NCBI GenBank assembly: GCA_028716165.1
Contig: JAQUQI010000007.1
Coordinates: 1,191-65,190 of the forward strand
Length of the DNA: 64,000 nucleotides
Origin: Candidatus Omnitrophota bacterium
Lineage (GTDB): Bacteria; Omnitrophota; Gorgyraeia; JABMRG01
Direction: 5' to 3'
Made by a program: the position numbers and the translations under genes. Below, in pieces: positions 23,309 to 60,439 of the stretch (its first letter is position 1; the number at the start of each line of letters is the position of its first letter). The notes beneath the pieces are model-generated. The model did no database searches. It worked only from the letters and a program-made list of their open reading frames with translations, and was not told where the DNA came from.

Positions 23309-23532
23309 TATTGCAGGCGTCCTATTTGGAGACACCCTGCGTGCTCAATCACGTTCAATGGAAATACCTCACGTGTCATCCAGAGCGGCAGGAGGCGAGG
23401 CCAGAATAAGCCGCGAAGGATCTGGAAGTGAAGTCAGTATTAGATTCCTCGCTTCGCTCGGAATGACAAGGTGGACGCTCGGAATGACAAGGTGGACGAT
23501 CGGAATGACAAAGGCGGCGCTTGAAATGACAA
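23309..23532. repeat. mosaic palindromic repeat cluster A
   Basis: Left module attgcaggcgtcctatttggagacaccct…, then a tgtcatccagagcgg…gcgaaggatctggaagtga unit, then attagattcctcgcttcgctcggaatgaca and 3–4 further (c)ggaatgaca repeats. Confidence 0.85.
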
Positions 23533-38151: not shown

Positions 38152-41100
38152 GTGAAGACAGTATTGAGAAGAGCTGTAGTTTTCATTGTTTTGCTTAGTT
38201 TTGTGTTTCCGAATACTATTTATGCCAATGATCTCAAAATTCACACCTTAAGGCAGATGTCAGCAGCTTTAAGCAATTTCAACAGCCGGTTTATTGATAA
38301 AGATTTCTTTTACGGAGAATTCAGTGATATAAAAAAAATATTAGACAGGGATATGTTCAGGGATTATGATTACCGGACAAGAGGCCGCGAAATTGACCCC
38401 CGCATAGCTTTTAGGATGGGGATTATCTGGGCGAGAATGGCCCTGGACAACATGTCCAGTTTTCATGTAGACAATAAAACTGTTATTTTTGCCCGGGATT
38501 GCCGTGACGTTAATCCCGAAATAGCCGAGGCTGTTATCGCGGGAGTAAGATATTGCGGGCTTAATGTAATTGATATTTCACAAACTATGCGTAACAGCGC
38601 CGCCGCTTATTCATGGTCTGTGATACAGCATAAGCCGCTTATGGGTATTTTTATGACCTCAAGTCATGTAACAGGCGATGGTGTATCAGGATTTAAAGTT
38701 AGCATAATGGGCAGAAACGGTAAACTGCAAAGCCTCACCACCAGAGAGATAAAAGATGTAAGTTATGGCCTGTTGACCCTGATGATAGAAGAGCCCGATA
38801 TTATAAACGCGTATAAAAGCCAGGATATGGGCAGTCTGAATGCCTGCCATGGCACAGAAACTGAAGCCGCGGATTTTATCACTTTATTAGGCAGGATAGT
38901 TTCAGGTGAACACAACAAAGAGCTGGCTGTCCGGGCAAGGACTGTTATGCGGTCAAAAGACCCGGCGGCAATGACCAGGCTGATGAACAATAGTATGGCA
39001 GGGCAACAGCCGTTGAAAGGCATGACGGTTGTTATAGATTCTGCCCATACACCAAGCGGTGTTATAGCTGAAAAGACGTTTGCTGATTTGGGGGCCGCGA
39101 TAATATCATTGCATGCCGAACCCATGCTTTTAAAAGGAAATCATAAGGCAGACCCGTCAAAGCCTGAAAATTTAGAAGACCTGAAAGCCGAGATGCTTAA
39201 ATCCGGAGCAGGCCTTGGCCTTGCTTTTGACCTTGACGGCGACAGAGGGGCTATTTGCGTGCCTGACGGAAGAGGCGGTGTAGACGTATTGTCACCGGAC
39301 AATGTTATGGCGGCTATATTGAAATTTCTCATTAAAGGGTGCGGTTATGAACAGACCGGACCGATTGCCGTGGTGCGTGATGTCTTGTCAACGCGGGGCG
39401 TTGACGACGAGGCAGAGCTGTATGGAGTGCGCGCGGAACAGACCGATGCCGGCTACGTCTTTTTAAAGGAAAGAGTCCGTTTTCTTCAGACCAACGGATT
39501 TACCGTCCCAATTTATGGAGAACGTTCCGGTCATATCTGGCTTGATGCCGCGGGCGAGTTTGAAAATCCAATAGCTGTAGCAGTGTTATTTGCCGTAATG
39601 AACTCTGACCTTCTTTTTAAATATAAACCCGTGGCCTATAAGCAGTCTCCCCGTTTTCAGCCGGAGTTTTCACAGCCGCTATTGGCCGTTCTTTCTTCTC
39701 ATAAGCACAACGATACGGGATGGAATTATAAAGAAGCGGTAGAATATCTTGTCAACGGAACCGGCCACAAGCCGCCGCAGAAGATTATAGCGCTTGGCAG
39801 GGACCACGCGATAAAAATTTTGTCAGAAGTGTTTAAAAAAGGCGCGGAGTTCAAGACTCCTATAGGTAAAATCAGCGTTGAGAGTTATGATACGTATAAA
39901 GACGACGAATCCGCGGGCGGGTTGTTTAGATACGCGGATATAGGTTTTTCAAGAAATGGAGAATATATAGGCAGATTCGTATTTCGCGCCTCATCCAATG
40001 ACCCTACGTTTGTTTGTTCTTTTGAAGCTGCTCATGGCAGTGGAGAGATTGGGGAAACTGTCAGCCTAAGATATATTTCCGTGGGAGGACTTGTTCTTGA
40101 TAGCCTGGAACAGCTTAAGTTAGCCTCTATTACCGGCGTGCCACAAGGCGTGCGCCAGACACTCGAAGACTATAGAAGCCTTATGAAGATACCGGCTGTT
40201 TCGGCCAATAATCCTATCTTCTTTGAATTTGTTTCAGCAGGGCAGACGCTCAACGGCGGGGTTGATTTTGAACCTATTCAAAAGCCCGGTTTTTTTCAAT
40301 CTATAAGCGAGGAGATGCTTGATAATATGGCTTTTGATCTTGCGTTCAGGACGGGAAAACCGGAAAGGCTTAAGATGCTGAATGAGATATTTGAAATAGC
40401 ATCTGTAAAAAAAATATTTCCCGCCTCAATACATAATCTATACATGGTAATGGGCAAAGGCTGGACAGGCGGTTTTACTGTTCCCGCCATAAATATTAGA
40501 GGGCTAACCTATTATACCGCCCGGGCGGCATTCAAAGCCGCTGTTAAGCGCAATGTCGGGGTAATGATATTTGAAATAGCAAGAAGCGAGTTAGGTTATA
40601 CCGGACAGGACGTATTGGAATACGCTGGCCAGATTACCTTGGCTGCAATGAGAGAAGGTTATGAAGGGCCTTTGTATTTCCAGATAGATCACGGCCAGGT
40701 CAATGCCAAAAAAGATTACGATTCAGAGATAAAGGCATTGAAAGACCTGTTCAGAGAAGCTATCGTTGACGCTAAATTCGGAAATATTGATGTGGATACA
40801 TCCACGCTGGCCCTGACAGAAGGCAGTCTCAAGGAACAGCAAATGCCGAACGCGCGCGCTATTGCTGAATTGATAAAAAATATCAGGTCTATAGAACCTG
40901 AAAACACCACCATATCTATAGGAGGCGAGGTAGGAGAAGTCGGCAACAGGAACACCACGCTTGATGACGTGGAGGCTTTCATGGACATATTAAACGGCAT
41001 GCTTACCGCCGATAATATATCCGTTGGTTTAAGCAAGTTGAGCATACAGACAGGAACGGCTCATGGAGGGGTCCCATTGCCGGACGGCAGTCTCGCGCAG

Positions 41101-42279
41101 GTAAACATTGATTTTGATATAATTGAAAAGGTAAGCGCATTAGTAAAAAAGAAATACGGCATGTCCGGGGCTGTCCAGCACGGCGCGTCCACCTTGCCTG
41201 ATGAGGCGTTTCATCATTTTGTTGATAAAAAAGCTTCTGAAATTCATCTTGCGACAGGATTTCAGAATATAATATTTGACAGCAAATATTTTCCGAAGGA
41301 ACTGCTCAACAGAATATATGAGATACTTCTGACGGATCCGGCCTTTGCCTCTGACAGGGCCAAGCTGGAATCCGGCAAACAGACAAAAGAGCAGTTTTTG
41401 TATTCAACAAGAAAAAAAGCGTTTGGAATACCGGAAATAAAGCTTGCAATGTGGACACTACCCGAAGAAACTATAGATAATATACTCAAGGAACTTGAGG
41501 AAAAATTCGGGTTTTTATTTGAACAATTGAATGTTGTTAATACTCTTAATCTGCGAAGATATGCCGTCAAAATACCTATCGGCAAATCCTCCTCCGCAGG
41601 TATCCTTGAACTCGACAAGCCTTATACCCTTACAGAGTACAACTTATTATCAGTCATAGATGAGTCTATACGCGAGAATAACGGTGTCCTGGCGAATACA
41701 CTTATTGAGTCCAAGCTCTCGGCAGAGCTTATCAGGCTTTGCCCTAAGTTTTTAGCAGATCAGGCCGGCCTTGAAAGAAACCACATTGTTGCCATTGATG
41801 ATAAGATGCTTCCCGAAGGCCATATATTCAATAAGTATCTTTTAAAAGATACGGCACAGCATCAGGCCCTGGAAGAGTCTCATGGCTGTATGATACGCTT
41901 GTTGTCCCAGCTGACAACAGATGAGTTGACAGGCAGAAACCTTATAATCATATCGGACCGCAGGAGCATAGAAGGATATGAAAAGGCCCTATATCTCAAT
42001 GTTGATAAACAAAGGATAGATGCCGGACTCCTGCTCGCCCCGTATATCGGTATAGCAAGGCTTTTGCTTTCCGCAAGAGAGGACATAGTAATTGACATAA
42101 CAAACGCCTTAAACAAGGACAACCTTTACAGTATGCTTTTTGGCAGGCCTGCCAAGGAAGATGATATAAGGAAATTCCTTATTGAAGGTATATATGAACT
42201 TCCGGCCCCTGCCATTGTCAATTATCAGCAGGCAGAGGACATGCACCGCGCCTCATTGGCCGCGTTGATAGCAGCTTAA
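38152..42279 (+). CDS. 1375-aa secreted multidomain protein: phosphomannomutase/phosphoglucomutase-like domain, class II fructose/tagatose-bisphosphate aldolase domain and a shared 233-aa C-terminal domain
   Basis: Signal peptide. PGM/PMM-like motifs TSSHVTGDG and LAFDLDGDRGAI. Class II aldolase motifs FTVPAINIRG, YFQIDHG, SIGGEVGEVG, TGTAHGG and VQHGAST. The C-terminus is identical to that of the next gene. Confidence 0.7.
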   Translation: MKTVLRRAVVFIVLLSFVFPNTIYANDLKIHTLRQMSAALSNFNSRFIDKDFFYGEFSDIKKILDRDMFRDYDYRTRGREIDPRIAFRMGIIWARMALDNMSSFHVDNKTVIFARDCRDVNPEIAEAVIAGVRYCGLNVIDISQTMRNSAAAYSWSVIQHKPLMGIFMTSSHVTGDGVSGFKVSIMGRNGKLQSLTTREIKDVSYGLLTLMIEEPDIINAYKSQDMGSLNACHGTETEAADFITLLGRIVSGEHNKELAVRARTVMRSKDPAAMTRLMNNSMAGQQPLKGMTVVIDSAHTPSGVIAEKTFADLGAAIISLHAEPMLLKGNHKADPSKPENLEDLKAEMLKSGAGLGLAFDLDGDRGAICVPDGRGGVDVLSPDNVMAAILKFLIKGCGYEQTGPIAVVRDVLSTRGVDDEAELYGVRAEQTDAGYVFLKERVRFLQTNGFTVPIYGERSGHIWLDAAGEFENPIAVAVLFAVMNSDLLFKYKPVAYKQSPRFQPEFSQPLLAVLSSHKHNDTGWNYKEAVEYLVNGTGHKPPQKIIALGRDHAIKILSEVFKKGAEFKTPIGKISVESYDTYKDDESAGGLFRYADIGFSRNGEYIGRFVFRASSNDPTFVCSFEAAHGSGEIGETVSLRYISVGGLVLDSLEQLKLASITGVPQGVRQTLEDYRSLMKIPAVSANNPIFFEFVSAGQTLNGGVDFEPIQKPGFFQSISEEMLDNMAFDLAFRTGKPERLKMLNEIFEIASVKKIFPASIHNLYMVMGKGWTGGFTVPAINIRGLTYYTARAAFKAAVKRNVGVMIFEIARSELGYTGQDVLEYAGQITLAAMREGYEGPLYFQIDHGQVNAKKDYDSEIKALKDLFREAIVDAKFGNIDVDTSTLALTEGSLKEQQMPNARAIAELIKNIRSIEPENTTISIGGEVGEVGNRNTTLDDVEAFMDILNGMLTADNISVGLSKLSIQTGTAHGGVPLPDGSLAQVNIDFDIIEKVSALVKKKYGMSGAVQHGASTLPDEAFHHFVDKKASEIHLATGFQNIIFDSKYFPKELLNRIYEILLTDPAFASDRAKLESGKQTKEQFLYSTRKKAFGIPEIKLAMWTLPEETIDNILKELEEKFGFLFEQLNVVNTLNLRRYAVKIPIGKSSSAGILELDKPYTLTEYNLLSVIDESIRENNGVLANTLIESKLSAELIRLCPKFLADQAGLERNHIVAIDDKMLPEGHIFNKYLLKDTAQHQALEESHGCMIRLLSQLTTDELTGRNLIIISDRRSIEGYEKALYLNVDKQRIDAGLLLAPYIGIARLLLSAREDIVIDITNALNKDNLYSMLFGRPAKEDDIRKFLIEGIYELPAPAIVNYQQAEDMHRASLAALIAA

Positions 42280-49279: not shown

Positions 49280-49560
49280 TGTAGGCGTCCTATGAGGTAA
49301 CACCCTGTAAATGACAGAGGAGGCGAGTATTGGATTCCTCGCTTCGCTCGGAATGACAGGCGTACTTTGCCTGTCATCCAGAGCGGCGGAAGGCGAGGCA
49401 GGAGTAAGCCGCGAAGGATCTGGAAGTGAAAGAAGTATTGGATTCTTCGTCGCGCCTTCGGCGCTCCTCTGAATGACAAGGAAAACGAGTACCAGATTCC
49501 TCGCTTCGCTCGGAATGACAATAAGAGGCTCGGAATGACAAGGGCTTCGCTAATGACGAC
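49280..49560. repeat. mosaic repeat cluster H
   Basis: Mosaic units ending 4 nt before the ATG of the nucleotidyltransferase gene. Confidence 0.85.
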
Positions 49561-49563
49561 AAA

Positions 49564-50763
49564 ATGAATATAAAAAATATAAACATTAGAAACAACCGCG
49601 AATTCACATTAATCAGTCATGCCCTGCGCTATATTGTCAATGGACAGTTATCTTCAGAATTTGAGAGCTTATTGAGTGATAAAAATATTGATTGGCATTT
49701 ATTAAATAATTTATTATTCTATCATGAGATTGCCCCGTTTTTTTATGTAGCGGCAAAACATTATAAATGCCTGTTACCCTCTGACATGGAAAAAGTCCTG
49801 TCCTGGATTTATTGCCGGACAGCCCTGCAAAACCAGCTTATCCTTGAAACATATTCGGACATATATGACGCGTTTAGATCAAACGGGGTTGGATTACTGC
49901 CGATCAAGGGGGCGGCCCTCTTGCAAGACCTTTATGAAAAATTTCCCGTAAGGCCTATGTCCGACATAGATTGTCTTGTCCGCGAAACTGATTATGAAAA
50001 ATCAAAAGATATTTTAAAGAGCGCGAATTATGACATTGATCTTAGGGGGTTAAGCGAGTCTTATTGGATAATGAAACAGTGCCATGTCCCTTTCAGCGCC
50101 CGGCAGAAAAAAGCAATGGTCAATCCCGCCGTTGAACTGCATCTAAGGCTTGATTTTAAGCGATATGGCAGGGAACCTTTGCCCTATGTCTGGCAGAGGG
50201 CAAGAGACATTAATATAAACGGAAAGAATTTTCTCCGGCTTTCACCCGAAGACAGCCTGTTTAGCCTGGCACTGCACCAGAGGAGATTCGGCAAGCCGCT
50301 TTGCCTTAAATACGCTCTTGATACCGCGCTTCTTTTTAAAAAATATGAGAATGATTTTGACTGGGATTACGTTATCAATATGTGCGTGAAGGAACGTATG
50401 CGCAACTGCGTGTATTTTTTGCTGTTTCAGGCGGAAGTCCTTCTGCCGGGACATTCCGGTATCGCGAAAGGCCTGCGGCTGTTAAGGCCCGATTTTCTAA
50501 AGCGCAAGATGATGGAAAGATTTATCTTGGATAATACAGCTTCAGGGTATTTATTTGAAAGGATAAGACCCAATTATCTCCGCAGCCATTTTTTGCTGTA
50601 TGACAGTCTTGTAGAGCCCGTTATGTATATCATTAATATACCGAAAGAACAGTTCGCCAAATATTATTGCCTGCCGTTTGACGATAAAAAAACGGAAATA
50701 GCTTATAGGTTTAGGACGGCATATATCATAGGACGGTTTTTAAAGAAAAAACGCAAGAATTGA
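49564..50763 (+). CDS. uncharacterised nucleotidyltransferase (NTP_transf_5-like), convergent with the RiPP operon
   Basis: The …LLPIKGAALLQDLYEKFPVRPMSDIDCLVRETDYEKSKDIL pattern recalls lasso-peptide-associated nucleotidyltransferases. Assignment from memory; no database was run. Confidence 0.5.
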   Translation: MNIKNINIRNNREFTLISHALRYIVNGQLSSEFESLLSDKNIDWHLLNNLLFYHEIAPFFYVAAKHYKCLLPSDMEKVLSWIYCRTALQNQLILETYSDIYDAFRSNGVGLLPIKGAALLQDLYEKFPVRPMSDIDCLVRETDYEKSKDILKSANYDIDLRGLSESYWIMKQCHVPFSARQKKAMVNPAVELHLRLDFKRYGREPLPYVWQRARDININGKNFLRLSPEDSLFSLALHQRRFGKPLCLKYALDTALLFKKYENDFDWDYVINMCVKERMRNCVYFLLFQAEVLLPGHSGIAKGLRLLRPDFLKRKMMERFILDNTASGYLFERIRPNYLRSHFLLYDSLVEPVMYIINIPKEQFAKYYCLPFDDKKTEIAYRFRTAYIIGRFLKKKRKN

Positions 50764-50804: not shown

Positions 50805-51095
50805 TTACGCATATTTAATGATATTATGTTTAAGCAGATTGTCGGTAAATTCTAATACGTCTTTTTCTATGTTTTCCGGTGAAGCATCAAATTCAGCTCC
50901 GATAAGGCCGATAATGTCCGACAGGTTTTTTTGACCGTCTATCCGGTCCCATATGTATAATCCCATGGGATTTAATCTGTATACCTTGTTTGAAGGTATG
51001 TGCACTATTATCAATTCTCCGTCAATTGCCCGCCATGCCAGCTGTCGTTTATTTATTATAGGTTTATGGTTGTGTTCAGGTTGATTTTTTAGCAT
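50805..51095 (-). CDS. PqqD-family RiPP recognition/chaperone protein
   Basis: Translation …YRLNPMGLYIWDRIDGQKNLSDIIGLIGAEFDASPENIEKDVLEFTDNLLKHNII matches the PqqD pattern. Confidence 0.75.
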   Translation of the reverse strand: MLKNQPEHNHKPIINKRQLAWRAIDGELIIVHIPSNKVYRLNPMGLYIWDRIDGQKNLSDIIGLIGAEFDASPENIEKDVLEFTDNLLKHNIIKYA

Positions 51096-51125: not shown

Positions 51126-51296
51126 TTATCTACAAACAACACTTCCCGTGCATACCACGGGCGAGACGGTACATCTTGCGGCATGCGCTATAGTGCCCTC
51201 TTCGGGATGTTCTATTGCCTCAATCTCCGGTATTTGATAGTTCTTTTTAGTGTTTTTTTTGGCAAAATGTTTAAAATCTTTCGCATCATTTTTCAT
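51126..51296 (-). CDS. RiPP precursor peptide 1 (56 aa)
   Basis: Manual minus-strand translation: MKNDAKDFKHFAKKNTKKNYQIPEIEAIEHPEEGTIAHAARCTVSPVVCTGSVVCR. The Shine-Dalgarno GGAGGAG lies 6 nt upstream. Below the ORF-track size cut-off. Confidence 0.7.
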   Translation of the reverse strand: MKNDAKDFKHFAKKNTKKNYQIPEIEAIEHPEEGTIAHAARCTVSPVVCTGSVVCR

Positions 51297-51312: not shown

Positions 51313-51486
51313 TTATCCGTCGCAAACTATAAATGAAGGGCATTCCGCGGGCGATACAGGGCATCCCGCGGCATGCGCTATAGTGCCCTCTTCGGGATGT
51401 TCTATTGCCTCAATCTCCGGTATTTGATAGTTTTTTTTAGTGTTTTTTTTGGCAAAATGTTTAAAATCTTTCGCATCATTTTTCAT
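51313..51486 (-). CDS. RiPP precursor peptide 2 (57 aa)
   Basis: Translation MKNDAKDFKHFAKKNTKKKYQIPEIEAIEHPEEGTIAHAAGCPVSPAECPSFIVCDG. Same Shine-Dalgarno. Its stop overlaps the Shine-Dalgarno of peptide 1. Confidence 0.7.
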   Translation of the reverse strand: MKNDAKDFKHFAKKNTKKNYQIPEIEAIEHPEEGTIAHAAGCPVSPAECPSFIVCDG

Positions 51487-51502: not shown

Positions 51503-51655
51503 TTATCCGTCGCAAACTATAAATGAAGGGCATTCCGCGGCATGCGCTATAGTGCCCTCTTCGGGATGCTCTATTGCCTCAATCTCCGGTATTTGGTATT
51601 TCTTCTTGGTTTTTTCGCGGTTAAGAATTTTATCTTTTGCATTCGTATTTTTCAT
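51503..51655 (-). CDS. RiPP precursor peptide 3 (50 aa)
   Basis: Translation MKNTNAKDKILNREKTKKKYQIPEIEAIEHPEEGTIAHAAECPSFIVCDG. It lies 21 nt downstream of the rSAM stop. The Shine-Dalgarno is weaker. Confidence 0.6.
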   Translation of the reverse strand: MKNTNAKDKILNREKTKKKYQIPEIEAIEHPEEGTIAHAAECPSFIVCDG

Positions 51656-51676: not shown

Positions 51677-52678
51677 TTATAATTCTTTCCAAAAATCGTG
51701 CAGAGCCTTGATACTGGTATAAGCTTGTTCGGGGCATTTTACAAAGGTATTTGTCACAGCCTGTGATTGAGCGGGGCATCTGAACATACATGTTTTTTTG
51801 AATTCACATACCTTGCAGTCAATATAATCCTCACACTTTAATTTTCTAAGAGCGTTAAAACATTCAGATTTACGCCATATCTCTTTAAGCGGCTGTTTAT
51901 ATATATTACCCGCTTCCATAGGAAATACGGCGCATGGAAAAACTTTTCCGTCAGCGGCGATATAGCATCTTTCAGTGCCGGCATGGCACGGTAAGGGGTC
52001 AACTGATTTAGGAGACGGCTCAACCGGTTTTTCATATGATTTTATTATAACACCCCACTGCTTTAATTTCGGAAGTATCTGCTCCAGCGGTATTTTACAT
52101 TTGGTAAGCGTCTGGTCGCAGTGCCTGCCGGCGGAAACGCCTGTTGAAAATTTTAGTTCTACATCGCGCCTATTCACGAAAAGACTATTAATAAGCGGGG
52201 TATCATTGCAGGTAACGGCATTTATATTATAAGCAATGTATACCTTAATACCCGCGGCAAGGAGATTCTCTATCCCTTCAACCGCTTTTTTGAACATTCT
52301 TTTGCCGGTAAACGCCTCATAAGTTTCTTCGCTTGCTCCATATAGGCTTACTCCAGCTTCATTGATGCCGTAATCATAAAGTTTTTTGGCCATGCCCTGA
52401 TTTATCAGCGTCCCATTGCTTAATATATCTACCCTAAAGCCCCTGTCGCGGGCCTGTTCTATATAATAAAATATTTTTTTTAAGGTAAACGGCTCGCCTC
52501 CGGTAAATGTAATATGAAAAGCCCCTGCATCGGCGAGCTCATCCAGCAGTTTTATCAGCCTTTCGTGTTTTAATTCGGCACCGTCTTTTTTATTGATGCA
52601 ATACATGCAGTTAAGATTGCAGAAACGGGTGAGTTCTATGTGAACCTTTTTTATATAATTTTTTGCAAGTCCTTCCAC
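51677..52678 (-). CDS. radical SAM/SPASM-domain peptide maturase
   Basis: N-terminal CNLNCMYC (CX3CX2C) cluster. The C-terminus has 7 or more Cys in a SPASM-like arrangement (…CKVCEFKKTCMFRCPAQ…VKCPEQ). Confidence 0.8.
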   Translation of the reverse strand: MEGLAKNYIKKVHIELTRFCNLNCMYCINKKDGAELKHERLIKLLDELADAGAFHITFTGGEPFTLKKIFYYIEQARDRGFRVDILSNGTLINQGMAKKLYDYGINEAGVSLYGASEETYEAFTGKRMFKKAVEGIENLLAAGIKVYIAYNINAVTCNDTPLINSLFVNRRDVELKFSTGVSAGRHCDQTLTKCKIPLEQILPKLKQWGVIIKSYEKPVEPSPKSVDPLPCHAGTERCYIAADGKVFPCAVFPMEAGNIYKQPLKEIWRKSECFNALRKLKCEDYIDCKVCEFKKTCMFRCPAQSQAVTNTFVKCPEQAYTSIKALHDFWKEL

Positions 52679-53577
52679 AATGACCCTCTTTTCAAGAGTT
52701 CTTTTTTGATATTTTCACAGCCTATTGTTAATATGCCGCTTTTTACCTGAAGTGCCAAGCTGTTTAATCGGTTGAACATGTTTTTTACAGCGCGGTTGTT
52801 TACAATCTCCATATTAAAGGTATTAACGCTTGATGTCAATAGTTTTATCGCGGCTTCCGGTTTTGAGATGGCCTGCCAGCGCAAATTCCACCCCGTGGCT
52901 TTTTCAAGAAATATAAGCAGAGACGGCACGCGGTAGCTTTCCCATGAGCCGGCATTTAAGAGATTTAGCGTGTCTTTGCGGTTATTTCTTCTGCTTAGTC
53001 CTTCAATATAGGGAAATGTGACAGATATGGTGTTACGGCCTTTTTTACCTATCATGGTATGGGAATCGCTTATTATCTTAAATCCGTTGACCGCGGCGCT
53101 TATCAGAAGGGTTGTTTTGCCGTAACCCGAAGGCCCTGTGGCAATTACGCAATGCCTGTCCTTTGCCCAGCATGAGGCGTGCAGAAACGCGAAACCGTCA
53201 ATTTTTAACAATGTCTTTAAAGTATTTTGAAACAGCGCGTAATAACCTATAGTCTGCTGGTTTCTGTAAACAAGGCCAACCCATGATCTGTTTTTAAGGT
53301 TAAATAACGATTCATAGTGGTCATTGTTTTGAATTTTACCGCCGGATGCCAGTATATCCTGCCGCAGTGTCTTGTATGTTTCTTTACCGCGCAACAGGGT
53401 TATGGTAATGTTTTTTGGGTTTTTTACAGTAGGGGTATTTATATAATGATTTTTTATGTAATTGACCAGAACGGGGACATCGGTTATCAGGTTGATCTTG
53501 TAATCATATATGGAAAAATCATAGGTCAATAACCGTTTTGCGTGAATGTCATTCAGAGCGTATGCTGTTTTTGGCAT
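52651..53577 (-). CDS. HPr-kinase-related (HprK C-domain-like) P-loop protein
   Basis: VIATGPSGYGKTTLLISAAVNGFKIISDSHTMI parallels the HprK Walker A region. An AGGAG Shine-Dalgarno precedes it. The start overlaps the rSAM gene. Confidence 0.65.
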   Translation of the reverse strand: MPKTAYALNDIHAKRLLTYDFSIYDYKINLITDVPVLVNYIKNHYINTPTVKNPKNITITLLRGKETYKTLRQDILASGGKIQNNDHYESLFNLKNRSWVGLVYRNQQTIGYYALFQNTLKTLLKIDGFAFLHASCWAKDRHCVIATGPSGYGKTTLLISAAVNGFKIISDSHTMIGKKGRNTISVTFPYIEGLSRRNNRKDTLNLLNAGSWESYRVPSLLIFLEKATGWNLRWQAISKPEAAIKLLTSSVNTFNMEIVNNRAVKNMFNRLNSLALQVKSGILTIGCENIKKELLKRGSLWKDLQKII

Positions 53578-53684
53578 CAGGTCTCCTGTTGGGAAGCTTA
53601 ATAAAATAATTATATCTCATATGGCTGTTGTTATCAACAAGTATTACAGACGTTTTGAAAGTTACGAGGCAAGCGTTTTCACGC

Positions 53685-54215
53685 ATCATCCGGGGCGGCA
53701 GTATTAGATTCCTCGCTTCGCTCGGAATGACAGACGCACTTTGCCTGTCATCCAGAGCGGCAGGAGGCGAGGCAAGTGTCAGCCGCGAAGGATCTGGGAG
53801 TGAGCCCTGTGTCATCCAGAGCGGAACCGGCGAAGCAAGTTTCGTTAGCGAAGGATCTGGGAGGGAAATCAGTATTGGATTCTTCGTCGCGCCTTCGGCG
53901 CTCCTCTTAAATGACAAGGAAGCCCACGGCGCTCCTCTGAATGACAAAAGGAGGCGAGTACCAGATTCCTCGCTTCGCTCGGAATGACAGGCGTACTCTG
54001 CCTGTCATCCAGAGCGGAACCGGCGAGGCACGGGTCATACGCCTGTCATCCAGAGCGGAACCGGCGAGGCACGGGTCATACGCCTGTCATCCAGAGCGGC
54101 AGGAGTCGGGGTCAGTGTGAGCCGCGAAGGATCTGGGAGTGAAGTCAGTATTGGATTCTTCGTCGCGCCTTCGGCGCTCCTCTGAATGACAACGATAGCC
54201 TTCGGCGCTCAAGGT
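53685..54215. repeat. mosaic repeat cluster I (longest, about 530 bp)
   Basis: At least seven units. It contains an exact tandem duplication of a 41-bp unit, cctgtcatccagagcggaaccggcgaggcacgggtcatacg, at 54001–54082. Confidence 0.85.
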
Positions 54216-54377: not shown

Positions 54378-54608
54378 ATGGCAAAATCCCTTATTACACC
54401 GGCAGAAATAAGCAAGATGCACGATATTTCATATCAGACTGTTAATTATTATACCAATCTCGGGCTTTTAAAAGTGGAAAAGAAAATAGCCAACAGCCGT
54501 CTGTATAATTCAAAAGACGTCAACTCGCGGCTTAAAAAACTATCCGACCTTAAAAGCCAGGGGTATTCCCTAAGGCTTATATGCGGCCTGTTGAGGGAGA
54601 ATAGATGA
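54378..54608 (+). CDS. small MerR-like HTH protein
   Basis: HTH segment ISKMHDISYQTVNYYTNLGLL. Confidence 0.5.
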   Translation: MAKSLITPAEISKMHDISYQTVNYYTNLGLLKVEKKIANSRLYNSKDVNSRLKKLSDLKSQGYSLRLICGLLRENR

Positions 54609-55429
54609 GCTATTATACCGCGCTGGGCTTAAAGAAAGAGCCTTTTTCAAACAGCCCTGACCCGGAGTTTTTCTTTGAATCCAGCGAGCACAAGGCCGCT
54701 CTTACAAGGCTGTTGATAGAGATACGCCTTAGGCGGGGCTTGAGTGTGATATTAGGCGATGTGGGTGTCGGCAAAACCACCCTTTCGCGCAAGCTTTTTC
54801 AGATGCTCAAGGAGCGCGAGGACGTTTTATTTTACATGATAATGGACCCCACTTCCGGCAGTGAGGAGCTTTTCCTGCAGTCGCTTGTTCGCACGTTTAA
54901 CCTGCAGGAGCAGATAGAAGGCCTGCCGACGATACTTGACTATAAGGAAACGATAAAGAAATTTTTATTCCAGAAAGGCGTTGAAGAAAACAAAACCATT
55001 GTCCTTGTCGTTGATGAGGCGCAGAAGCTTAATCCTGCCTCGCTTGAGACCTTGCGCGTTCTGTTAAATTATGAGACAAATGATTTTAAACTGCTTCAGC
55101 TTGTATTATTTTCCCAGATGGAGCTTTTGCCGCGCATTAAGGAGATGAAAAATTTTTTTGACAGGATAGTGCTGAAATACGTTGTGAATTCTTTAGACGA
55201 GGCGGAAACAAAGGATTTTATCAATTTTCGCATGGAACATTCAGGGTTTAATCCCGGGACTTTATTGTTTACCGATGAGGCGGTAAGCGAAATTTACAGG
55301 CACAGCCAGGGATATCCGCGCAGGATAAATCTTATATGCCACAATGCCCTAAGAAACCTTCTCGTAAGCGATAAGATGCTTATAGACGGCGTTGACGTAA
55401 GAGAGGTTATAGCAAGGAGCGTGATTTAA
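54605..55429 (+). CDS. ExeA/GspA/MshM-like AAA ATPase
   Basis: Walker A GDVGVGKTT and Walker B VLVVDEAQ. Upstream of the secretin genes. Confidence 0.7.
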   Translation: MSYYTALGLKKEPFSNSPDPEFFFESSEHKAALTRLLIEIRLRRGLSVILGDVGVGKTTLSRKLFQMLKEREDVLFYMIMDPTSGSEELFLQSLVRTFNLQEQIEGLPTILDYKETIKKFLFQKGVEENKTIVLVVDEAQKLNPASLETLRVLLNYETNDFKLLQLVLFSQMELLPRIKEMKNFFDRIVLKYVVNSLDEAETKDFINFRMEHSGFNPGTLLFTDEAVSEIYRHSQGYPRRINLICHNALRNLLVSDKMLIDGVDVREVIARSVI

Positions 55430-55432
55430 GAT

Positions 55433-56098
55433 ATGGACAAGCAGACCTCGGATGAAAGACTGCTGAAATTGCTTGAAGGCCAGTATTCTTCAACCCATGG
55501 CCCGTTAGCGCCATCACAGCCCGCGCAGCACCCTAAGCCGGCAAAGCGACTGGGCATAAAACCCGTTTCCAGGCTCAATATCCTAAAGCCTTTTTTAAGG
55601 CTAAAAATAGCAAAATTTGACCTGGCATATATTAACAAGTCTCTTTTCGCGCTGGCATTCTTATTAAGCGCTGTCTTTTTTTACATACTGTTTGTGTCCC
55701 CCGCATTATCGGGTGCCGCGGGCGCTATCCTTCATCCTGCCGATATTACCCAGATACAAAGGCTGATAAAGGCAAGCCACAACCAGCTTGAAATGCGCGG
55801 CAATATTTCTGAAGCGGAATCAGAAAGGGACATCTTCCTGCCTTTCGGCGTTAAAAGCGCTTACGAGGAAGAACAGGAGATAAACATAGAAGATGAGCTT
55901 GGCATATATAAGCTGGTTGGGATTATATGGTCTCAAGTGCCCGAGGCGATAATTGAAAGCGAAATGGACACCAGGACGCTTGTCGTTAAAAAAGGCGATA
56001 CACTTGGTGATAAATGCACGGTAAAAGACGTCCTGCGCAATTCCGTCATACTGCAGGTATCAACAAAAGACGGGCTAAGGGACTATGAATTAAGATGA
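55433..56098 (+). CDS. single-pass membrane protein of the secretin locus
   Basis: One TM helix (LFALAFLLSAVFFYILFV) and no recognised domain. Confidence 0.4.
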   Translation: MDKQTSDERLLKLLEGQYSSTHGPLAPSQPAQHPKPAKRLGIKPVSRLNILKPFLRLKIAKFDLAYINKSLFALAFLLSAVFFYILFVSPALSGAAGAILHPADITQIQRLIKASHNQLEMRGNISEAESERDIFLPFGVKSAYEEEQEINIEDELGIYKLVGIIWSQVPEAIIESEMDTRTLVVKKGDTLGDKCTVKDVLRNSVILQVSTKDGLRDYELR

Positions 56099-57645
56099 GA
56101 GCATGGCCCTGTTTGGTTTTGTGTTGTCTGCTTGCGGCATCAGGCCCCGGCCCGCGCCCGGCGCGGGCAGAAGAAGGGTTGCCTTCCCCTTCTTTAGCGG
56201 AAGAGGCGGTTGAGCAAAGCCGCGAATATACCGATAAGATATATCTTGACCTTAAAGGTATTGATGTAAAAGAGCTTTTCAGGATTTTATCCCAGCGAAG
56301 CGGGATAACAATAATTACCACCCCCGCGGTGCAGGGCCGCGTGACGGTGCTGATAGATAATTTAAGTTTTGAGAACGCCTTGGATGTTATTATGACTACG
56401 CAAAACTTGGCTTACGAAAGAAACGGCAACCTGATGAAGGTCATGACAGCGGATGAATACGAAAAGGCTTTCGGCAGAAAATTCTGGGACAGGAAAGAGA
56501 CCCGCGCGATCAAACTTTCATATGCCAAGCCTGAAAGCGCGATGGGGGTAATAAATTTTTTAAAATCAGACCTCGGCCAGATAGTGTCAGAACCCGCTAC
56601 AGGCACTATTGTTGTCACCGATACCCCGCAGGCTATCAGCGCTATAATGGAGGCGATAAATGAGCTTGATGCCCCGCCCGGAAGCCTTGTGTATAATGTT
56701 AATTACGCGCGCATGGCGGACATAAAAAATTATCTGGAAGGGCTGATTACGCCGGAACTCGGCAAGATAATCATTGATGAAAGGAGCAGTAAGGTCATAA
56801 TATATGACCTGCCGCGCAGGCTTGAGCGCATAGCGGAACTTTTGCAGGAACTTGATGAGCAGTCCCGCCAGGTGCTTATAACGGGTGAGATAGTGGAAGT
56901 TGACATAAGCGATAATTTCCAAAGCGGCATTGAATGGGAGAAGATATTCCGGTCCGCGAATATGGATAACCTTGACCTGACGTCAAAATTTCCCGTAACC
57001 CCGGCGCTTACAAGCTACGGAAAGATAAGCATGGGCACATTATCAAGGGATAATTATAATGTGGTGATGAATATGCTCTCCGAATACGGCAATACAAGGA
57101 TACTCAACAGGCCGAGAATAGTCGCGGTCAATAAGGAAGAGGCGAAGATACTCGTCGGAACACGCGAGGCGTATGTGACGTCCACCCAGAGCCAGAGTGA
57201 GACGACCGTAGTCACTTCCGAAAGCATTAATTTTATTGACGTGGGCGTTAAGCTTGTAGTAGTACCTACTATAGGTGTTGACGGTTTTATAACCATGAGG
57301 ATAAAACCCGAGGTGAGTTCCGTAAAAGAAGTGCTGGAGACTACGGCGGGAACAAGGGTGCCGATAGTAAGGACATCGGAATCGGAGACAGTGGTAAAGG
57401 TAAAAGACGGCAATACGCTTATTATTGCCGGTTTATTGTCAGAGACCGATACAGACGATGCCACAGGCCTTCCTGGTTTCGCGAAAACACCAATATTCGG
57501 GGGATTATTCGCTACAAAGACAAAGGAAAAGCAGAAAACCGAACTGGTCATATTTATTACCCCCAAGATTGTTACGGGCGCTGTAAACTTTTCAGATGAG
57601 AAAACAGATATTTTTGACAATAAGGATGGCAATGAGAAGGGGTAA
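56095..57645 (+). CDS. secretin (GspD/PilQ/MshL family)
   Basis: N-terminal STN-like domain. Secretin C-domain motifs: NRPRIVAVNKEEAKILVG, GLPGFAKTPIFGGLF…LVIFITPKIV. Confidence 0.8.
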   Translation: MRAWPCLVLCCLLAASGPGPRPARAEEGLPSPSLAEEAVEQSREYTDKIYLDLKGIDVKELFRILSQRSGITIITTPAVQGRVTVLIDNLSFENALDVIMTTQNLAYERNGNLMKVMTADEYEKAFGRKFWDRKETRAIKLSYAKPESAMGVINFLKSDLGQIVSEPATGTIVVTDTPQAISAIMEAINELDAPPGSLVYNVNYARMADIKNYLEGLITPELGKIIIDERSSKVIIYDLPRRLERIAELLQELDEQSRQVLITGEIVEVDISDNFQSGIEWEKIFRSANMDNLDLTSKFPVTPALTSYGKISMGTLSRDNYNVVMNMLSEYGNTRILNRPRIVAVNKEEAKILVGTREAYVTSTQSQSETTVVTSESINFIDVGVKLVVVPTIGVDGFITMRIKPEVSSVKEVLETTAGTRVPIVRTSESETVVKVKDGNTLIIAGLLSETDTDDATGLPGFAKTPIFGGLFATKTKEKQKTELVIFITPKIVTGAVNFSDEKTDIFDNKDGNEKG

Positions 57646-60439
57646 TTTATTTATAGCGTTATTATTGTGTTTTTTCTTAACAGGTGCATTGTTTTGCCCT
57701 TATACGGCCCAGGCCCGGCAGGAGAGCGCGCCGCAGTCTATAACTGATCTGCCGGATGACGCTTCGCCCGAAGCTTTTTCGGACGAAGATCAGGCCGGCC
57801 CTGTGCCCGATGAGGCGACAGGCCTTATGCCCGAACAGGCCAAATCCGGCGAAAGCCCGGAATCAGGCTATGCGCCTGTAAACGGCCAGGGGCAGTTTCC
57901 TCCCGAAGAAGGCTTGGCGGGCCCGGAAGACGATATTTCCGTTCTGCCGGACAGTCCGCAAACGCCTTCTGCCGACAGCGGCAAGGTATCGCTTGATTTA
58001 AAGAACATAGATATAGTTGAACTTTTGAGGGTGCTTTCTCTTAAGACCGGCAAGACTATAGTCCCAAGCGCGTTTGTGACAGGGCGCATTACCATTTACC
58101 TTGACAATGTCGCCTTTGAGGACGTCCTGGATATCATAGTGCTTACGCAGAATCTGGCGCTTAACAAGGTGAATAATATTTATTACGTGATGAGCCAGGC
58201 CGAATACAAACAGATGTTCGGAAGGAATTATTCTGACCAGAGAATAATAGAGACGATAAAGGTTTCTTACACGAAACCCTCCGTCGCCTTTGAGACATTC
58301 AATCAGCTAAAGTCGGACATCGGAAAACTCGTCGCTGATGAAGCGAGCGGGACCATTATAGTGATAGATATGCCTGAAAACATAGAGCTGATGAAAACAG
58401 CCCTTGAAGAAATAGACAAACCGTTGTCAACTACGACATATGACCTAAATTATGCCAAAGCCGCGGACATAAAGACGCATATAACATCCGCCCTGACCCC
58501 GGGGACAGGAGAGCTTATTGTGGACGAGAGAAGCGGCAAGGCCATAGTCTCGGACCTGCCTAAAAAGATAGACAGGATAGGCGAGCTTGTCCGCGAGATT
58601 GACGATGAGACCCGCCAGGTATATGTGGAGGCGGACATTATTGAGCTTACCTTAAGCGATAAATTTGAGCGGGGTATTGACTGGGAAAAAGTCTATTCCG
58701 CGGCGGCCATGCACGGCTTGAGTTTCGCCGGCTATTTTCCGGCGGTCCTGGCGCAATACCAGAAGATATCCGTGGGAACGCTTGCCGCGGACAACTACAG
58801 GGCTGTTTTGAATTTTCTTGATACATACGGCAAGACCAATATAATTTCCCAGCCGAGGATAGCGGTGATTAATAATGAAGAGTCTTATATCATGGTAGGG
58901 GTGCGCGAGGCGTATATAACGCAGACCCAGAGCCAGGCGACGTCTACTACCGTTACGTCCGAGACTGTGGAATTTATAGACGTGGGTGTCAAATTCAAGA
59001 TAACGCCCAGGATAGGCGCCGACGGCTTTATCGTCATGAAAATAAAACCCGAAGTAAGCTCGGTCAAAGAGACAATAACGACAACCCTCGGAAGCCGCAT
59101 ACCGATAGTCCAGACGTCGGAATCCGAAACCACGGTAAAGGTAAAAGACGGCACCATGATAATGATATCAGGCATGACAAAAATAGAAAAGATTGATACC
59201 GTTAAGGGCTGGCCTGTTGTCTCAAAGGTGCCTTTTTTGGGGGCCTTATTCAGCAGTCGTTCCACGGAGGATAAAAGAACGGAGGTCATAGTTTTTTTAA
59301 CGCCCAGGCTGATGCGCGGCGAGGCTGACATAAGCGGTGAAGAAATAGCAAAGATATTGGAAAAAGAATACCTGCCCGACGGCCTGAAATCAAGGGTATT
59401 ATATGATGAGGCTATGGACCTAATTAAAAGGGGAGAATATTCGCCTGCCGCCGAAAAACTGCGGCAGGTTGCCGAGGCCAATCCTGAATATCTTAAGACG
59501 CAGTATTACCTTTCCTTGGCAGAGGAAGAGCTGGCCAAAGAGCAGGCCCGTCTTGATGCCGCCCGCGAAAAGGAGCTGGATGACAAAAAACGCGATGAGC
59601 AAAACAGGCAAAAAGAGCTGGAAGGCCTGCGCCGCGCGAAAGAAGAAAAGGCCCGGGTGGAGCTTGCCGAAAAAGAACGCCTGCACAAGTTAAACAAACA
59701 GGCAAAGGCTTTGTATAATGAGGCATTGTCGCTTTATTGGGACAGGAAATTTGAAGCGGCTCTTGAAAAATTTAAAGAAACAGAGTCAATATTACCTGAT
59801 TATCTTAAAGTCAGGTATTATCTTGAACGGTGCTTAAAACATATTGATAAAAACCGGGCTTTGCTTGAAGCTGAAGGCAGTAGGCAAAAGCCCGAGGACG
59901 AGGCCCAGCCTGAACGATTACCCCATAAACCGGCTGAAAATCAGAAGCCCGCGCAGAGGACAGGACAGAGGCAGGTTATCCAAAGCGAAAAGCATGCGCC
60001 CGGCCCTGAAGAATTGGCGCGTGAATATTATGCCAAAGGCCTTGGCGCGCAGAAAGAGTCTAAGAACAAAGAGGCCATAGGCTGGTTTCTTAAGGCTGTT
60101 GAATCAGACAAAAAATTCTCCAAGGCGTATAATAGCCTGGGCCTGGCATATGAAGAAGAATTGATGAAGGATAAGGCTGAACAGGCATATCTTGGTGCTG
60201 TATCCGCCGAGCCGTCATATTGTCCGGCATATTCTAATCTGGCATTGATTTGTGAAGAACGACAGGATTTTAACGAAGCGCTTGAGTATTGGCGTAAGCG
60301 GGTTTTTTACGGGGACCCTGGCTCTGATTGGACAAAACAGGCCGCCGCGCGGGTTAAAGAGTTGGAGGAGATATTAGCATCGGATTCCTCGGTGACAGTA
60401 TCGGATTCTTCGTCGCGCCTTCGGCGCTCCTCTGAATGA
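57632..60439 (+). CDS. second secretin paralog with a C-terminal coiled-coil/TPR extension
   Basis: Secretin motifs NIISQPRIAVINNEESYIMVG and VPFLGALF…VIVFLTPRLM, then a KE-rich coiled coil and TPR-like repeats. The start is uncertain between 57596, 57626 and 57632. The stop codon lies inside repeat cluster J. Confidence 0.7.
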   Translation: MRRGNLFIALLLCFFLTGALFCPYTAQARQESAPQSITDLPDDASPEAFSDEDQAGPVPDEATGLMPEQAKSGESPESGYAPVNGQGQFPPEEGLAGPEDDISVLPDSPQTPSADSGKVSLDLKNIDIVELLRVLSLKTGKTIVPSAFVTGRITIYLDNVAFEDVLDIIVLTQNLALNKVNNIYYVMSQAEYKQMFGRNYSDQRIIETIKVSYTKPSVAFETFNQLKSDIGKLVADEASGTIIVIDMPENIELMKTALEEIDKPLSTTTYDLNYAKAADIKTHITSALTPGTGELIVDERSGKAIVSDLPKKIDRIGELVREIDDETRQVYVEADIIELTLSDKFERGIDWEKVYSAAAMHGLSFAGYFPAVLAQYQKISVGTLAADNYRAVLNFLDTYGKTNIISQPRIAVINNEESYIMVGVREAYITQTQSQATSTTVTSETVEFIDVGVKFKITPRIGADGFIVMKIKPEVSSVKETITTTLGSRIPIVQTSESETTVKVKDGTMIMISGMTKIEKIDTVKGWPVVSKVPFLGALFSSRSTEDKRTEVIVFLTPRLMRGEADISGEEIAKILEKEYLPDGLKSRVLYDEAMDLIKRGEYSPAAEKLRQVAEANPEYLKTQYYLSLAEEELAKEQARLDAAREKELDDKKRDEQNRQKELEGLRRAKEEKARVELAEKERLHKLNKQAKALYNEALSLYWDRKFEAALEKFKETESILPDYLKVRYYLERCLKHIDKNRALLEAEGSRQKPEDEAQPERLPHKPAENQKPAQRTGQRQVIQSEKHAPGPEELAREYYAKGLGAQKESKNKEAIGWFLKAVESDKKFSKAYNSLGLAYEEELMKDKAEQAYLGAVSAEPSYCPAYSNLALICEERQDFNEALEYWRKRVFYGDPGSDWTKQAAARVKELEEILASDSSVTVSDSSSRLRRSSE

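Follow-up and report, generated by a model that had tools for sequence, protein, structure and literature searches.

A divergent ScmC-type HprK-like protein encoded with a radical SAM/SPASM enzyme and Cys-rich precursor peptides in an Omnitrophota genome

A 64,000-nucleotide stretch of contig JAQUQI010000007.1 from a Candidatus Omnitrophota bacterium (the window) encodes on its minus strand a 308-aa protein whose core resembles that of HPr kinase/phosphorylase (HprK/P). Judged by sequence comparison, this HprK-like protein belongs to the HprK/PEP carboxykinase-like P-loop superfamily, as a divergent member of the ScmC type, and is a dedicated component of a pathway for a ribosomally synthesised and post-translationally modified peptide (RiPP). 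By analogy with characterised relatives, we give an even chance to the reading that it phosphorylates a conserved serine (Ser45) of Cys-rich precursor peptides, within a pathway that includes a PqqD-family protein, a radical S-adenosylmethionine (rSAM)/SPASM enzyme and an NTP_transf_5 protein. The association of kinase-like and rSAM genes is not new, because it is already catalogued in the ScmC family databases; ScmC, ScmD, ScmE and ScmF are NCBIfam model names for the 'SynChlorMet' cassette (an HprK-like protein, a PqqD homologue and two rSAM/SPASM proteins). What is new is a sparse, divergent ScmC/HprK-like subfamily with identifiable precursors. The gene under study is the following.

52651–53577, minus strand: P-loop protein of the HprK superfamily (ScmC-type), 308 aa, ATG start, supported by profiles, a structural model and dN/dS

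The HprK-like protein, its fold and its relatives

The open reading frame (ORF) at 52651–53577 is a real gene under constraint, because it has a ribosome-binding site (AGGAG-like, 5 nt upstream of the ATG), a conserved overlap with the next gene and pairwise dN/dS values of 0.20–0.28 against three orthologues, which indicate purifying selection. A preliminary description of the window had pointed out this overlap: the HprK-like stop lies beyond the GTG start of the rSAM/SPASM gene (52678) by 28 nt, and the GTG has its own GAGGG site. Related loci have the same kind of overlap, which measures 28 nt in L001, L002 and L012 and 43 nt in L003. A near-consensus sigma-70-like promoter-like site (TTGATA-17-TATAAT, 53637–53609) was identified by consensus match only. 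The protein consists of an N-terminal alpha/beta domain (approximately residues 17–103) and a kinase-like core (approximately residues 112–308), of which residues 146–176 read ATGPSGYGKTTLLISAAVNGFKIISDSHTMI. An identical protein is on record in a Candidatus Omnitrophica metagenome-assembled genome.

A scan with the single sequence returned no significant Pfam family, and TIGR04352 (HprK_rel_A) matched residues 129–179 only (35.6 bits, E=5e-9; cut-off 200). The match of the single sequence to an HprK structure in the Protein Data Bank (PDB) had an E-value of 0.16. A four-member family profile matched the L. casei HprK/P structure 1jb1 (E=1.9e-4) and two further HprK structures. An exhaustive HMMER search gave 56 proteins at E≤1e-3. 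All of the 32 remote homologues tested matched HprK_rel_A and HprK_rel_B, while Hpr_kinase_C was matched by 22, hpr-ser by 21 and ScmC by 15 of them. A 1480-aa repetitive protein (P0005) was excluded from the alignments; its seven matches to profile residues 96–133 (E=7.6e-16) were taken as spurious and repeat-driven.

The structure was modelled with AlphaFold2 (AF2). A usable model was obtained only from an 80-sequence alignment (predicted local distance difference test, pLDDT, 85.6; predicted template modelling score, pTM, 0.85), as a 3-sequence family alignment gave a pLDDT of 29.5. Foldseek searches of the PDB with this model retrieved ATP-dependent phosphoenolpyruvate (PEP) carboxykinases over approximately 350 columns (E~5e-9, TMq ~0.5) and the catalytic domain of HprK/P (1kkl, 1jb1, 2qmh and 3tqf; E-values of 3e-7 to 4e-6, TMt 0.48–0.56). 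The P-loop fold is common to HprK/P and PEP carboxykinase (PEPCK). On the basis of the model, we are confident that the HprK-like protein has a HprK/PEPCK-like P-loop fold. The structural check that the preliminary description had proposed thus came out as HprK/PEPCK-like and not as an unrelated fold, and its assignment of an HprK-like core with a Walker A motif was borne out by the family profile, the profile–profile comparison and the predicted fold.

In profile–profile alignment with hhalign, the family (A4) was related to a set of ScmC-type proteins (A5) with 99.7% probability (E=2e-26) over 273 columns, covering residues 17–292. Within A5, P0006 and P0008 are labelled as PF27840 'ScmC' in Pfam. 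The alignment with a set of lasso-type kinases (A6) reached 98.3% (E=1.5e-14) and covered residues 92–283 only. This set includes P0066, the kinase of a paeninodin-type cluster (locus L008) in which Asn_synthase, a precursor, the HprK-like protein, PqqD, Transglut_core3, NTP_transf_5 and an ABC transporter occur together. According to these comparisons, the nearest relatives of the window protein are the ScmC-type HprK-like proteins of rSAM/SPASM–PqqD cassettes and not the lasso kinases. The analogy with lasso-peptide kinases drawn in the preliminary description therefore stands as homology but not as closest relationship. The window protein did not match TIGR04249 (ScmC; cut-off 125 bits) at E≤0.1, and P0001–P0003 had no precomputed PF27840 label (empty Pfam field).

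The N-terminal extension was modelled confidently as an alpha/beta domain of approximately 110 aa that is common to the rSAM-associated ScmC clade. A Pfam scan gave no match for this domain, and the N-terminal domain of HprK was not seen. Since the modelled domain recurs in the ScmC clade, the region is not anonymous; the earlier statement that the N-terminal 150 or so residues have no recognisable domain gives way to a folded domain shared with ScmC-type proteins. This domain may serve, for instance, to bind the PqqD protein, the leader or the rSAM enzyme.

The family was very sparse: it comprised five lineages, and clustering at 50% left two representatives. Only three close homologues came out of a word-indexed protein search. 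The exhaustive protein search added P0004, a further full-length member among the representatives at 50% clustering, and after it gave weak matches confined to the core. Scanning genome contigs with the family alignment yielded no loci, scanning them with ScmC-like proteins yielded three, and a metagenome scan added only two, both of the P0003 lineage. The contigs of P0008, P0024 and P0028 were too short to inform on gene context.

Active site and the Asp-to-Ser change

Three segments of the core correspond to catalytic elements of HprK/P:

53113–53136, minus strand: Walker A motif (P-loop) GPSGYGKT, residues 148–155; Lys154/Thr155 align with HprK/P Lys161/Ser162
53179–53181, minus strand: His133, aligned with HprK/P His140 and invariant in 80 of 80 superfamily sequences
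53059–53067, minus strand: Asp171-Ser172-His173, predicted tip of a beta-hairpin, aligned with HprK/P Asp178-Asp179, with Ser in place of Asp179

Residue equivalences were taken from alignments to 1jb1 (L. casei numbering), in which His133, Lys154, Thr155, Asp171 and Ser172 of the window protein correspond to His140, Lys161, Ser162, Asp178 and Asp179 of HprK/P. Across the 80-homologue alignment, His133 and Lys154 were invariant (both 80/80) and position 171 was Asp in 68 sequences. Position 172 was acidic in 72 of the 80 (Asp in 61, Glu in 11) and Ser in six. The model places residues 171–172 at a tip between strands 167–170 and 173–179. Asp179 of HprK/P, the proton acceptor, likewise sits at the tip of a beta-hairpin (PMC9399212). 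No conserved equivalent of the HprK/P Mg ligand Glu204 was present, as position 192 was E, G or L across the family.

The sequence at the tip was D-S-H in the window protein, P0002 and P0003/L004, and D-D-S in the more distant P0004 and L012. Because the latter two keep Asp-Asp, the loss of the second Asp is recent and lineage-specific. The segment HCVIATGPSGYGKTTLLISA..NG.KIISDSHTMIGK was invariant among HprK-like proteins with an overall identity of 69–80%, and this invariance around D-S-H argues for continued function. His173 could stand in as the base. With Ser172 at the position of Asp179, kinase activity cannot be taken for granted, which is the main caveat to the proposed function.

The Asp-to-Ser change also gives weight to an alternative that we consider unlikely, namely a pseudokinase or scaffold that binds nucleotide without phosphorylating and acts as an adaptor, either holding the complex of PqqD protein and leader together with the rSAM/SPASM enzyme or gating access to the core peptide. 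Translational coupling to the rSAM gene suggests a stoichiometric complex, the N-terminal domain is conserved only with rSAM-associated ScmC-type proteins, and some related precursors have no Ser. Against this reading, the P-loop, His133 and Asp171 are strictly kept, and the invariance of the DSH hairpin under purifying selection goes beyond the need expected for a pure scaffold. Moreover, His173 may replace the base, and sister lineages retain Asp-Asp in the same operon.

The same residues bear on whether the gene encodes an ordinary HprK/P that serves carbon catabolite control, a reading that is effectively refuted. The window protein and HprK/P (1jb1, 1kkl and 1ko7) share the PEPCK-like P-loop fold, Walker A, the equivalents of His140, Lys161, Ser162 and Asp178 and the hairpin-tip position, so that the case for an ordinary HprK/P is confined to the common P-loop core. 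The window protein differs from HprK/P in its N-terminal domain, which is not that of HprK, in the replacement of Asp179 by Ser, in having no conserved Glu204 and in scores far below the cut-offs. PF07475 and TIGR00679 did not match the window protein at E≤0.1, and the sister protein P0004 matched TIGR00679 with 28.7 bits (E=7e-7; cut-off 240). An HPr substrate and a carbon-regulation context were also missing, in line with the preliminary description: a search of the 64-kb window with HPr query sequences gave no homologue, and no HPr or CcpA-like gene was present among the annotated neighbours. The conserved operon partners were RiPP genes in every related locus.

Gene cluster, precursor peptides and surroundings

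The remaining genes of the cluster are as follows:

51677–52678, minus strand: rSAM/SPASM peptide maturase, 333 aa (Radical_SAM 2.3e-25, SPASM 6.2e-11)
51503–51655, minus strand: precursor peptide 3, 50 aa, with the same leader as precursor 2 and a core that is 7 residues shorter and has no C-x2-S-P
51313–51486, minus strand: precursor peptide 2, 57 aa, leader with KKNYQIPEI, core GCPVSPAECPSFIVCDG
51126–51296, minus strand: precursor peptide 1, 56 aa, core RCTVSPVVCTGSVVCR
50805–51095, minus strand: discrete PqqD-family RiPP recognition element (RRE), 96 aa (PF05402, E=1.2e-17)
49564–50763, plus strand: NTP_transf_5 (PF14907) protein with a nucleotidyltransferase fold, 399 aa (3.6e-39), convergent with the operon

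The minus-strand operon thus runs from the HprK-like gene through the rSAM/SPASM gene and three tandem precursor genes (spaced by 190 nt and 169 nt) to the PqqD gene, which agrees with the RiPP context proposed in the preliminary description. The rSAM/SPASM protein has a CxxxCxxC motif at residues 20–27 and a complete CX2CX5CX3C SPASM motif, and its best solved relative was the sactisynthase SkfB (6efn, E=2e-14). The PqqD protein was related to ScmD (best match), to lasso PqqD chaperones and to TbiB1 (5v1u, E=2e-5). Matches of the window rSAM and PqqD proteins to ScmE/ScmF and ScmD, respectively, were sub-threshold. The same gene set was found in L001, L002, L003, L004 and L012 (36–80% identity). 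The order, including the convergent NTP_transf_5 gene, was the same in L001, L003 and L004, and the partial loci L002 and L012 agree with it. The convergent NTP_transf_5 gene and a YxxPxI leader motif, neither of which had been noted before, complete a module of kinase, RRE and NTP transferase.

An alignment of ten precursors from four lineages showed Y20, P23 and I25, which form the YxxPxI leader motif, to be invariant. In the core, C42, V54 and C55 were invariant, and S45, P46 and C49 were near-invariant. The fifth lineage (L012) has CYASPNSC and no third Cys, and because this locus keeps that segment, the conserved core module is C-x2-S-P-x2-C, a motif kept across all five lineages. The most plausible candidate acceptor is therefore the near-invariant Ser (S45) of C-x2-S-P-x2-C, as judged from conservation. 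Any Ser or Thr in the cores had been proposed as an acceptor; the conserved Ser of this motif remains, and the serine of CPSF, which is not conserved, does not.

The position of Ser45, flanked symmetrically by two invariant Cys, would also suit a different use of the kinase. Lanthipeptide pathways are known for a logic of kinase action followed by elimination, as in classes III to V, and by the same logic a transiently phosphorylated Ser might serve as a leaving group, giving a dehydroalanine that reacts with Cys or serves the rSAM enzyme and a mature product free of phosphate. We regard this as improbable. Neither a lyase nor a cyclase homologue is encoded in the cluster, every HprK-like RiPP kinase that has been characterised gives a peptide with a stable phosphate or polyphosphate (PMC13381572, PMC9266682), and the type of NTP_transf_5 protein that is co-conserved here is reported to act on the phosphate (PMC9266682).

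Three further Omnitrophota loci (L006, L009 and L011) encode ScmC-type proteins, PqqD, a fusion of GT2 and PqqD, rSAM/SPASM enzymes and an NTP_transf_5 fusion of approximately 600 aa. Their precursors share a KKYQKPxL leader and have non-Cys cores. A tandem duplication in L006 (1958–4963) involves the rSAM gene together with its precursor gene. In L006 (8018–9850), L009 and L011, the NTP_transf_5 domain is fused at its N-terminal side to a region that weakly matches Peptidase_S24 and could be the missing leader peptidase.

The constant presence of an NTP_transf_5 partner, with glycosyltransferases adjoining in L003 and L006, could also point to a substrate other than the peptide. The HprK-like protein would then phosphorylate a sugar or small molecule that is subsequently transferred by the NTP_transf_5 protein, comparable to the FomB-type kinases of the same superfamily, and weak matches to FomB-family phosphonate kinases were obtained (the window protein reached E=0.032 and its homologues scored better). 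This appears very improbable, as the FomB matches were marginal, the characterised homologues in RRE-containing clusters act on peptide, and the HprK-like gene is coupled to the rSAM gene and not to the NTP-transferase gene.

The cluster is flanked by an autotransporter on one side and by an operon with MerR, ExeA-like and secretin genes on the other. The RiPP operon lies on the minus strand and the other large genes of the window on the plus strand. Between 50 and 54 kb, the AT skew flips to approximately -0.13 and the GC content falls to approximately 0.41, which would fit an acquired island, but neither an integrase nor a specific boundary was found. A repeat with the core GATTCCTCGCTTCGCTCGGAATGACA occurs 13 times in the window (0 expected), always on the plus strand (at 23443, 32992, 33206, 37645, 42304, 42476, 44843, 45819, 49333, 49495, 53707, 53964 and 61300). 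At least the copies at 49304–49520 and 53678–54195 are intergenic. These make up composite arrays, one on either side of the RiPP cluster, and give rise to spurious small ORFs (SFRAKRGI..., SERSEES...). Flanking direct repeats were considered as marks of a mobile island and rejected, as the repeat is interspersed, with 13 copies across the window.

Two other regions of the plus strand were recorded. A 1375-aa ORF (38152–42279) combines phosphoglucomutase/phosphomannomutase domains I–III (residues 68–464) with a class-II fructose-bisphosphate aldolase (residues 772–1042), an unusual fusion. The region 54378–60439 encodes a MerR-like helix-turn-helix protein, an ExeA-like AAA_22 ATPase, an unannotated ORF and a secretin (56095–57645, Pfam). 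A 947-aa ORF (57596–60439) overlaps the secretin gene and, by eye, has a secretin-like centre and a long C-terminal extension.

Proposed function and comparison with known systems

An HprK-like kinase, a discrete RRE and an NTP transferase form a module common to paeninodin-like lasso and LPP clusters, in which the leaders carry [Y/W]xxPx[L/V/I/F/A] (Popov et al. 2026, PMC13381572). LppK polyphosphorylates core Ser3 before the leader is removed (PMC13381572). PsmK phosphorylates the C-terminal Ser of pseudomycoidin, after which PsmN adds a hexose to the phospho-Ser (PMC9266682). On this model, the PqqD protein would bind the YxxPxI leader and present the precursor. The HprK-like protein would use ATP (or GTP) to phosphorylate, possibly repeatedly, the Ser of C-x2-S-P-x2-C on the linear precursor, as PadeK, ThcoK, PsmK and LppK do in the lasso and LPP pathways. 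The SkfB-like rSAM/SPASM enzyme would cross-link the flanking cysteines, probably as thioethers, and the NTP_transf_5 protein may decorate or extend the phosphate, as reported for PsmN. The sequence in which these steps are given implies no established order.

The window cluster resembles those of PadeK, ThcoK, PsmK and LppK in the HprK-like core, the discrete PqqD/RRE protein, the NTP_transf_5 protein and the [Y/W]xxPx[LVIFA] leader, and the acceptor in those systems is a Ser on a linear precursor. Unlike the lasso and LPP clusters, it contains no lasso cyclase/B2 peptidase and no SpI-type leader peptidase, and the SkfB-like rSAM/SPASM gene takes that place. The N-terminal ~90 residues of the window protein do not align with the lasso kinases, and its tetrad is His-Lys-Asp-Ser. 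Two Cys enclose the candidate acceptor, an internal residue, in contrast to the C-terminal Ser or core position 3 of the known systems. The hosts also differ: the window comes from Omnitrophota, LPPs and paeninodins occur exclusively in Bacillota, and related kinases have also been described in Proteobacteria.

ScmC cassettes (PF27840; TIGR04249) agree with the window cluster in full-length homology, including the N-terminal domain, and in the logic of an HprK-like protein, PqqD and rSAM/SPASM enzymes; the related Omnitrophota ScmC-type loci also have NTP_transf_5 and a KKYQKPxL leader. They differ in that the window has one rSAM gene and not two, and Ser in place of the second catalytic Asp. 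The window cores are Cys-rich with C-x2-S-P-x2-C, whereas the cores in L006 and L011 are rich in Ser, Thr and Ala and have no Cys. Sactipeptide and ranthipeptide clusters (e.g. that of SkfB) resemble the window cluster in the SkfB-like enzyme, the Cys-rich core and a PqqD-type RRE, which in the window is a separate protein and not a fused domain. We know of no HprK-like protein or NTP_transf_5 protein in characterised sactipeptide or ranthipeptide clusters.

Several observations weigh against phosphorylation of Ser45. The tetrad that is conserved and essential in lasso-peptide kinases, His-Lys-Asp-Asp (reviewed in PMC9266682), is His-Lys-Asp-Ser in the window protein, P0002 and P0003/L004, and is present as His-Lys-Asp-Asp in P0004 and L012. 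The window protein and its relatives reach no curated family cut-off. Window precursor 3 is the only one of the ten without the S-P segment, owing to an in-frame deletion of 7 residues that leaves only two Cys; this copy may be decaying or may encode a second type of product. No precursor ends in Ser, the C-terminal Ser being the acceptor in paeninodin, and Ser is entirely absent from the related L009 precursor. Neither a leader peptidase nor an exporter was present among the annotated neighbours of the cluster. Finally, no biochemical or other experimental work on ScmC-type proteins or cassettes was found in the literature searched.

Phosphorylation is rare among peptide natural products, and to our knowledge the tests of HprK-like peptide kinases made so far concern lasso and LPP pathways only. 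Tentatively, the cluster may represent an undescribed RiPP class, in which an rSAM cross-linked (sactipeptide- or ranthipeptide-like) peptide carries a phosphate or glycosyl-phosphate on the C-x2-S-P-x2-C loop, installed by an HprK-like enzyme without the canonical Asp, perhaps with His173 as the base, and with the kinase and rSAM enzymes acting as a coupled complex on the RRE-bound precursor. This possible class would extend the kinase, RRE and NTP-transferase module from the lasso and LPP pathways of Bacillota to rSAM chemistry in uncultured Omnitrophota.

The system is small (five gene types, approximately 4 kb) and can therefore be synthesised and expressed although the host phylum is uncultured. 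The cluster joins the module of kinase, recognition element and NTP transferase to rSAM/SPASM chemistry, and it supplies what the ScmC-type cassettes lacked, namely clear precursors and, as a candidate acceptor motif that lends itself to direct testing, C-x2-S-P-x2-C. If the HprK-like protein is active despite the Asp-to-Ser change, it would show what variation the HprK active site tolerates.

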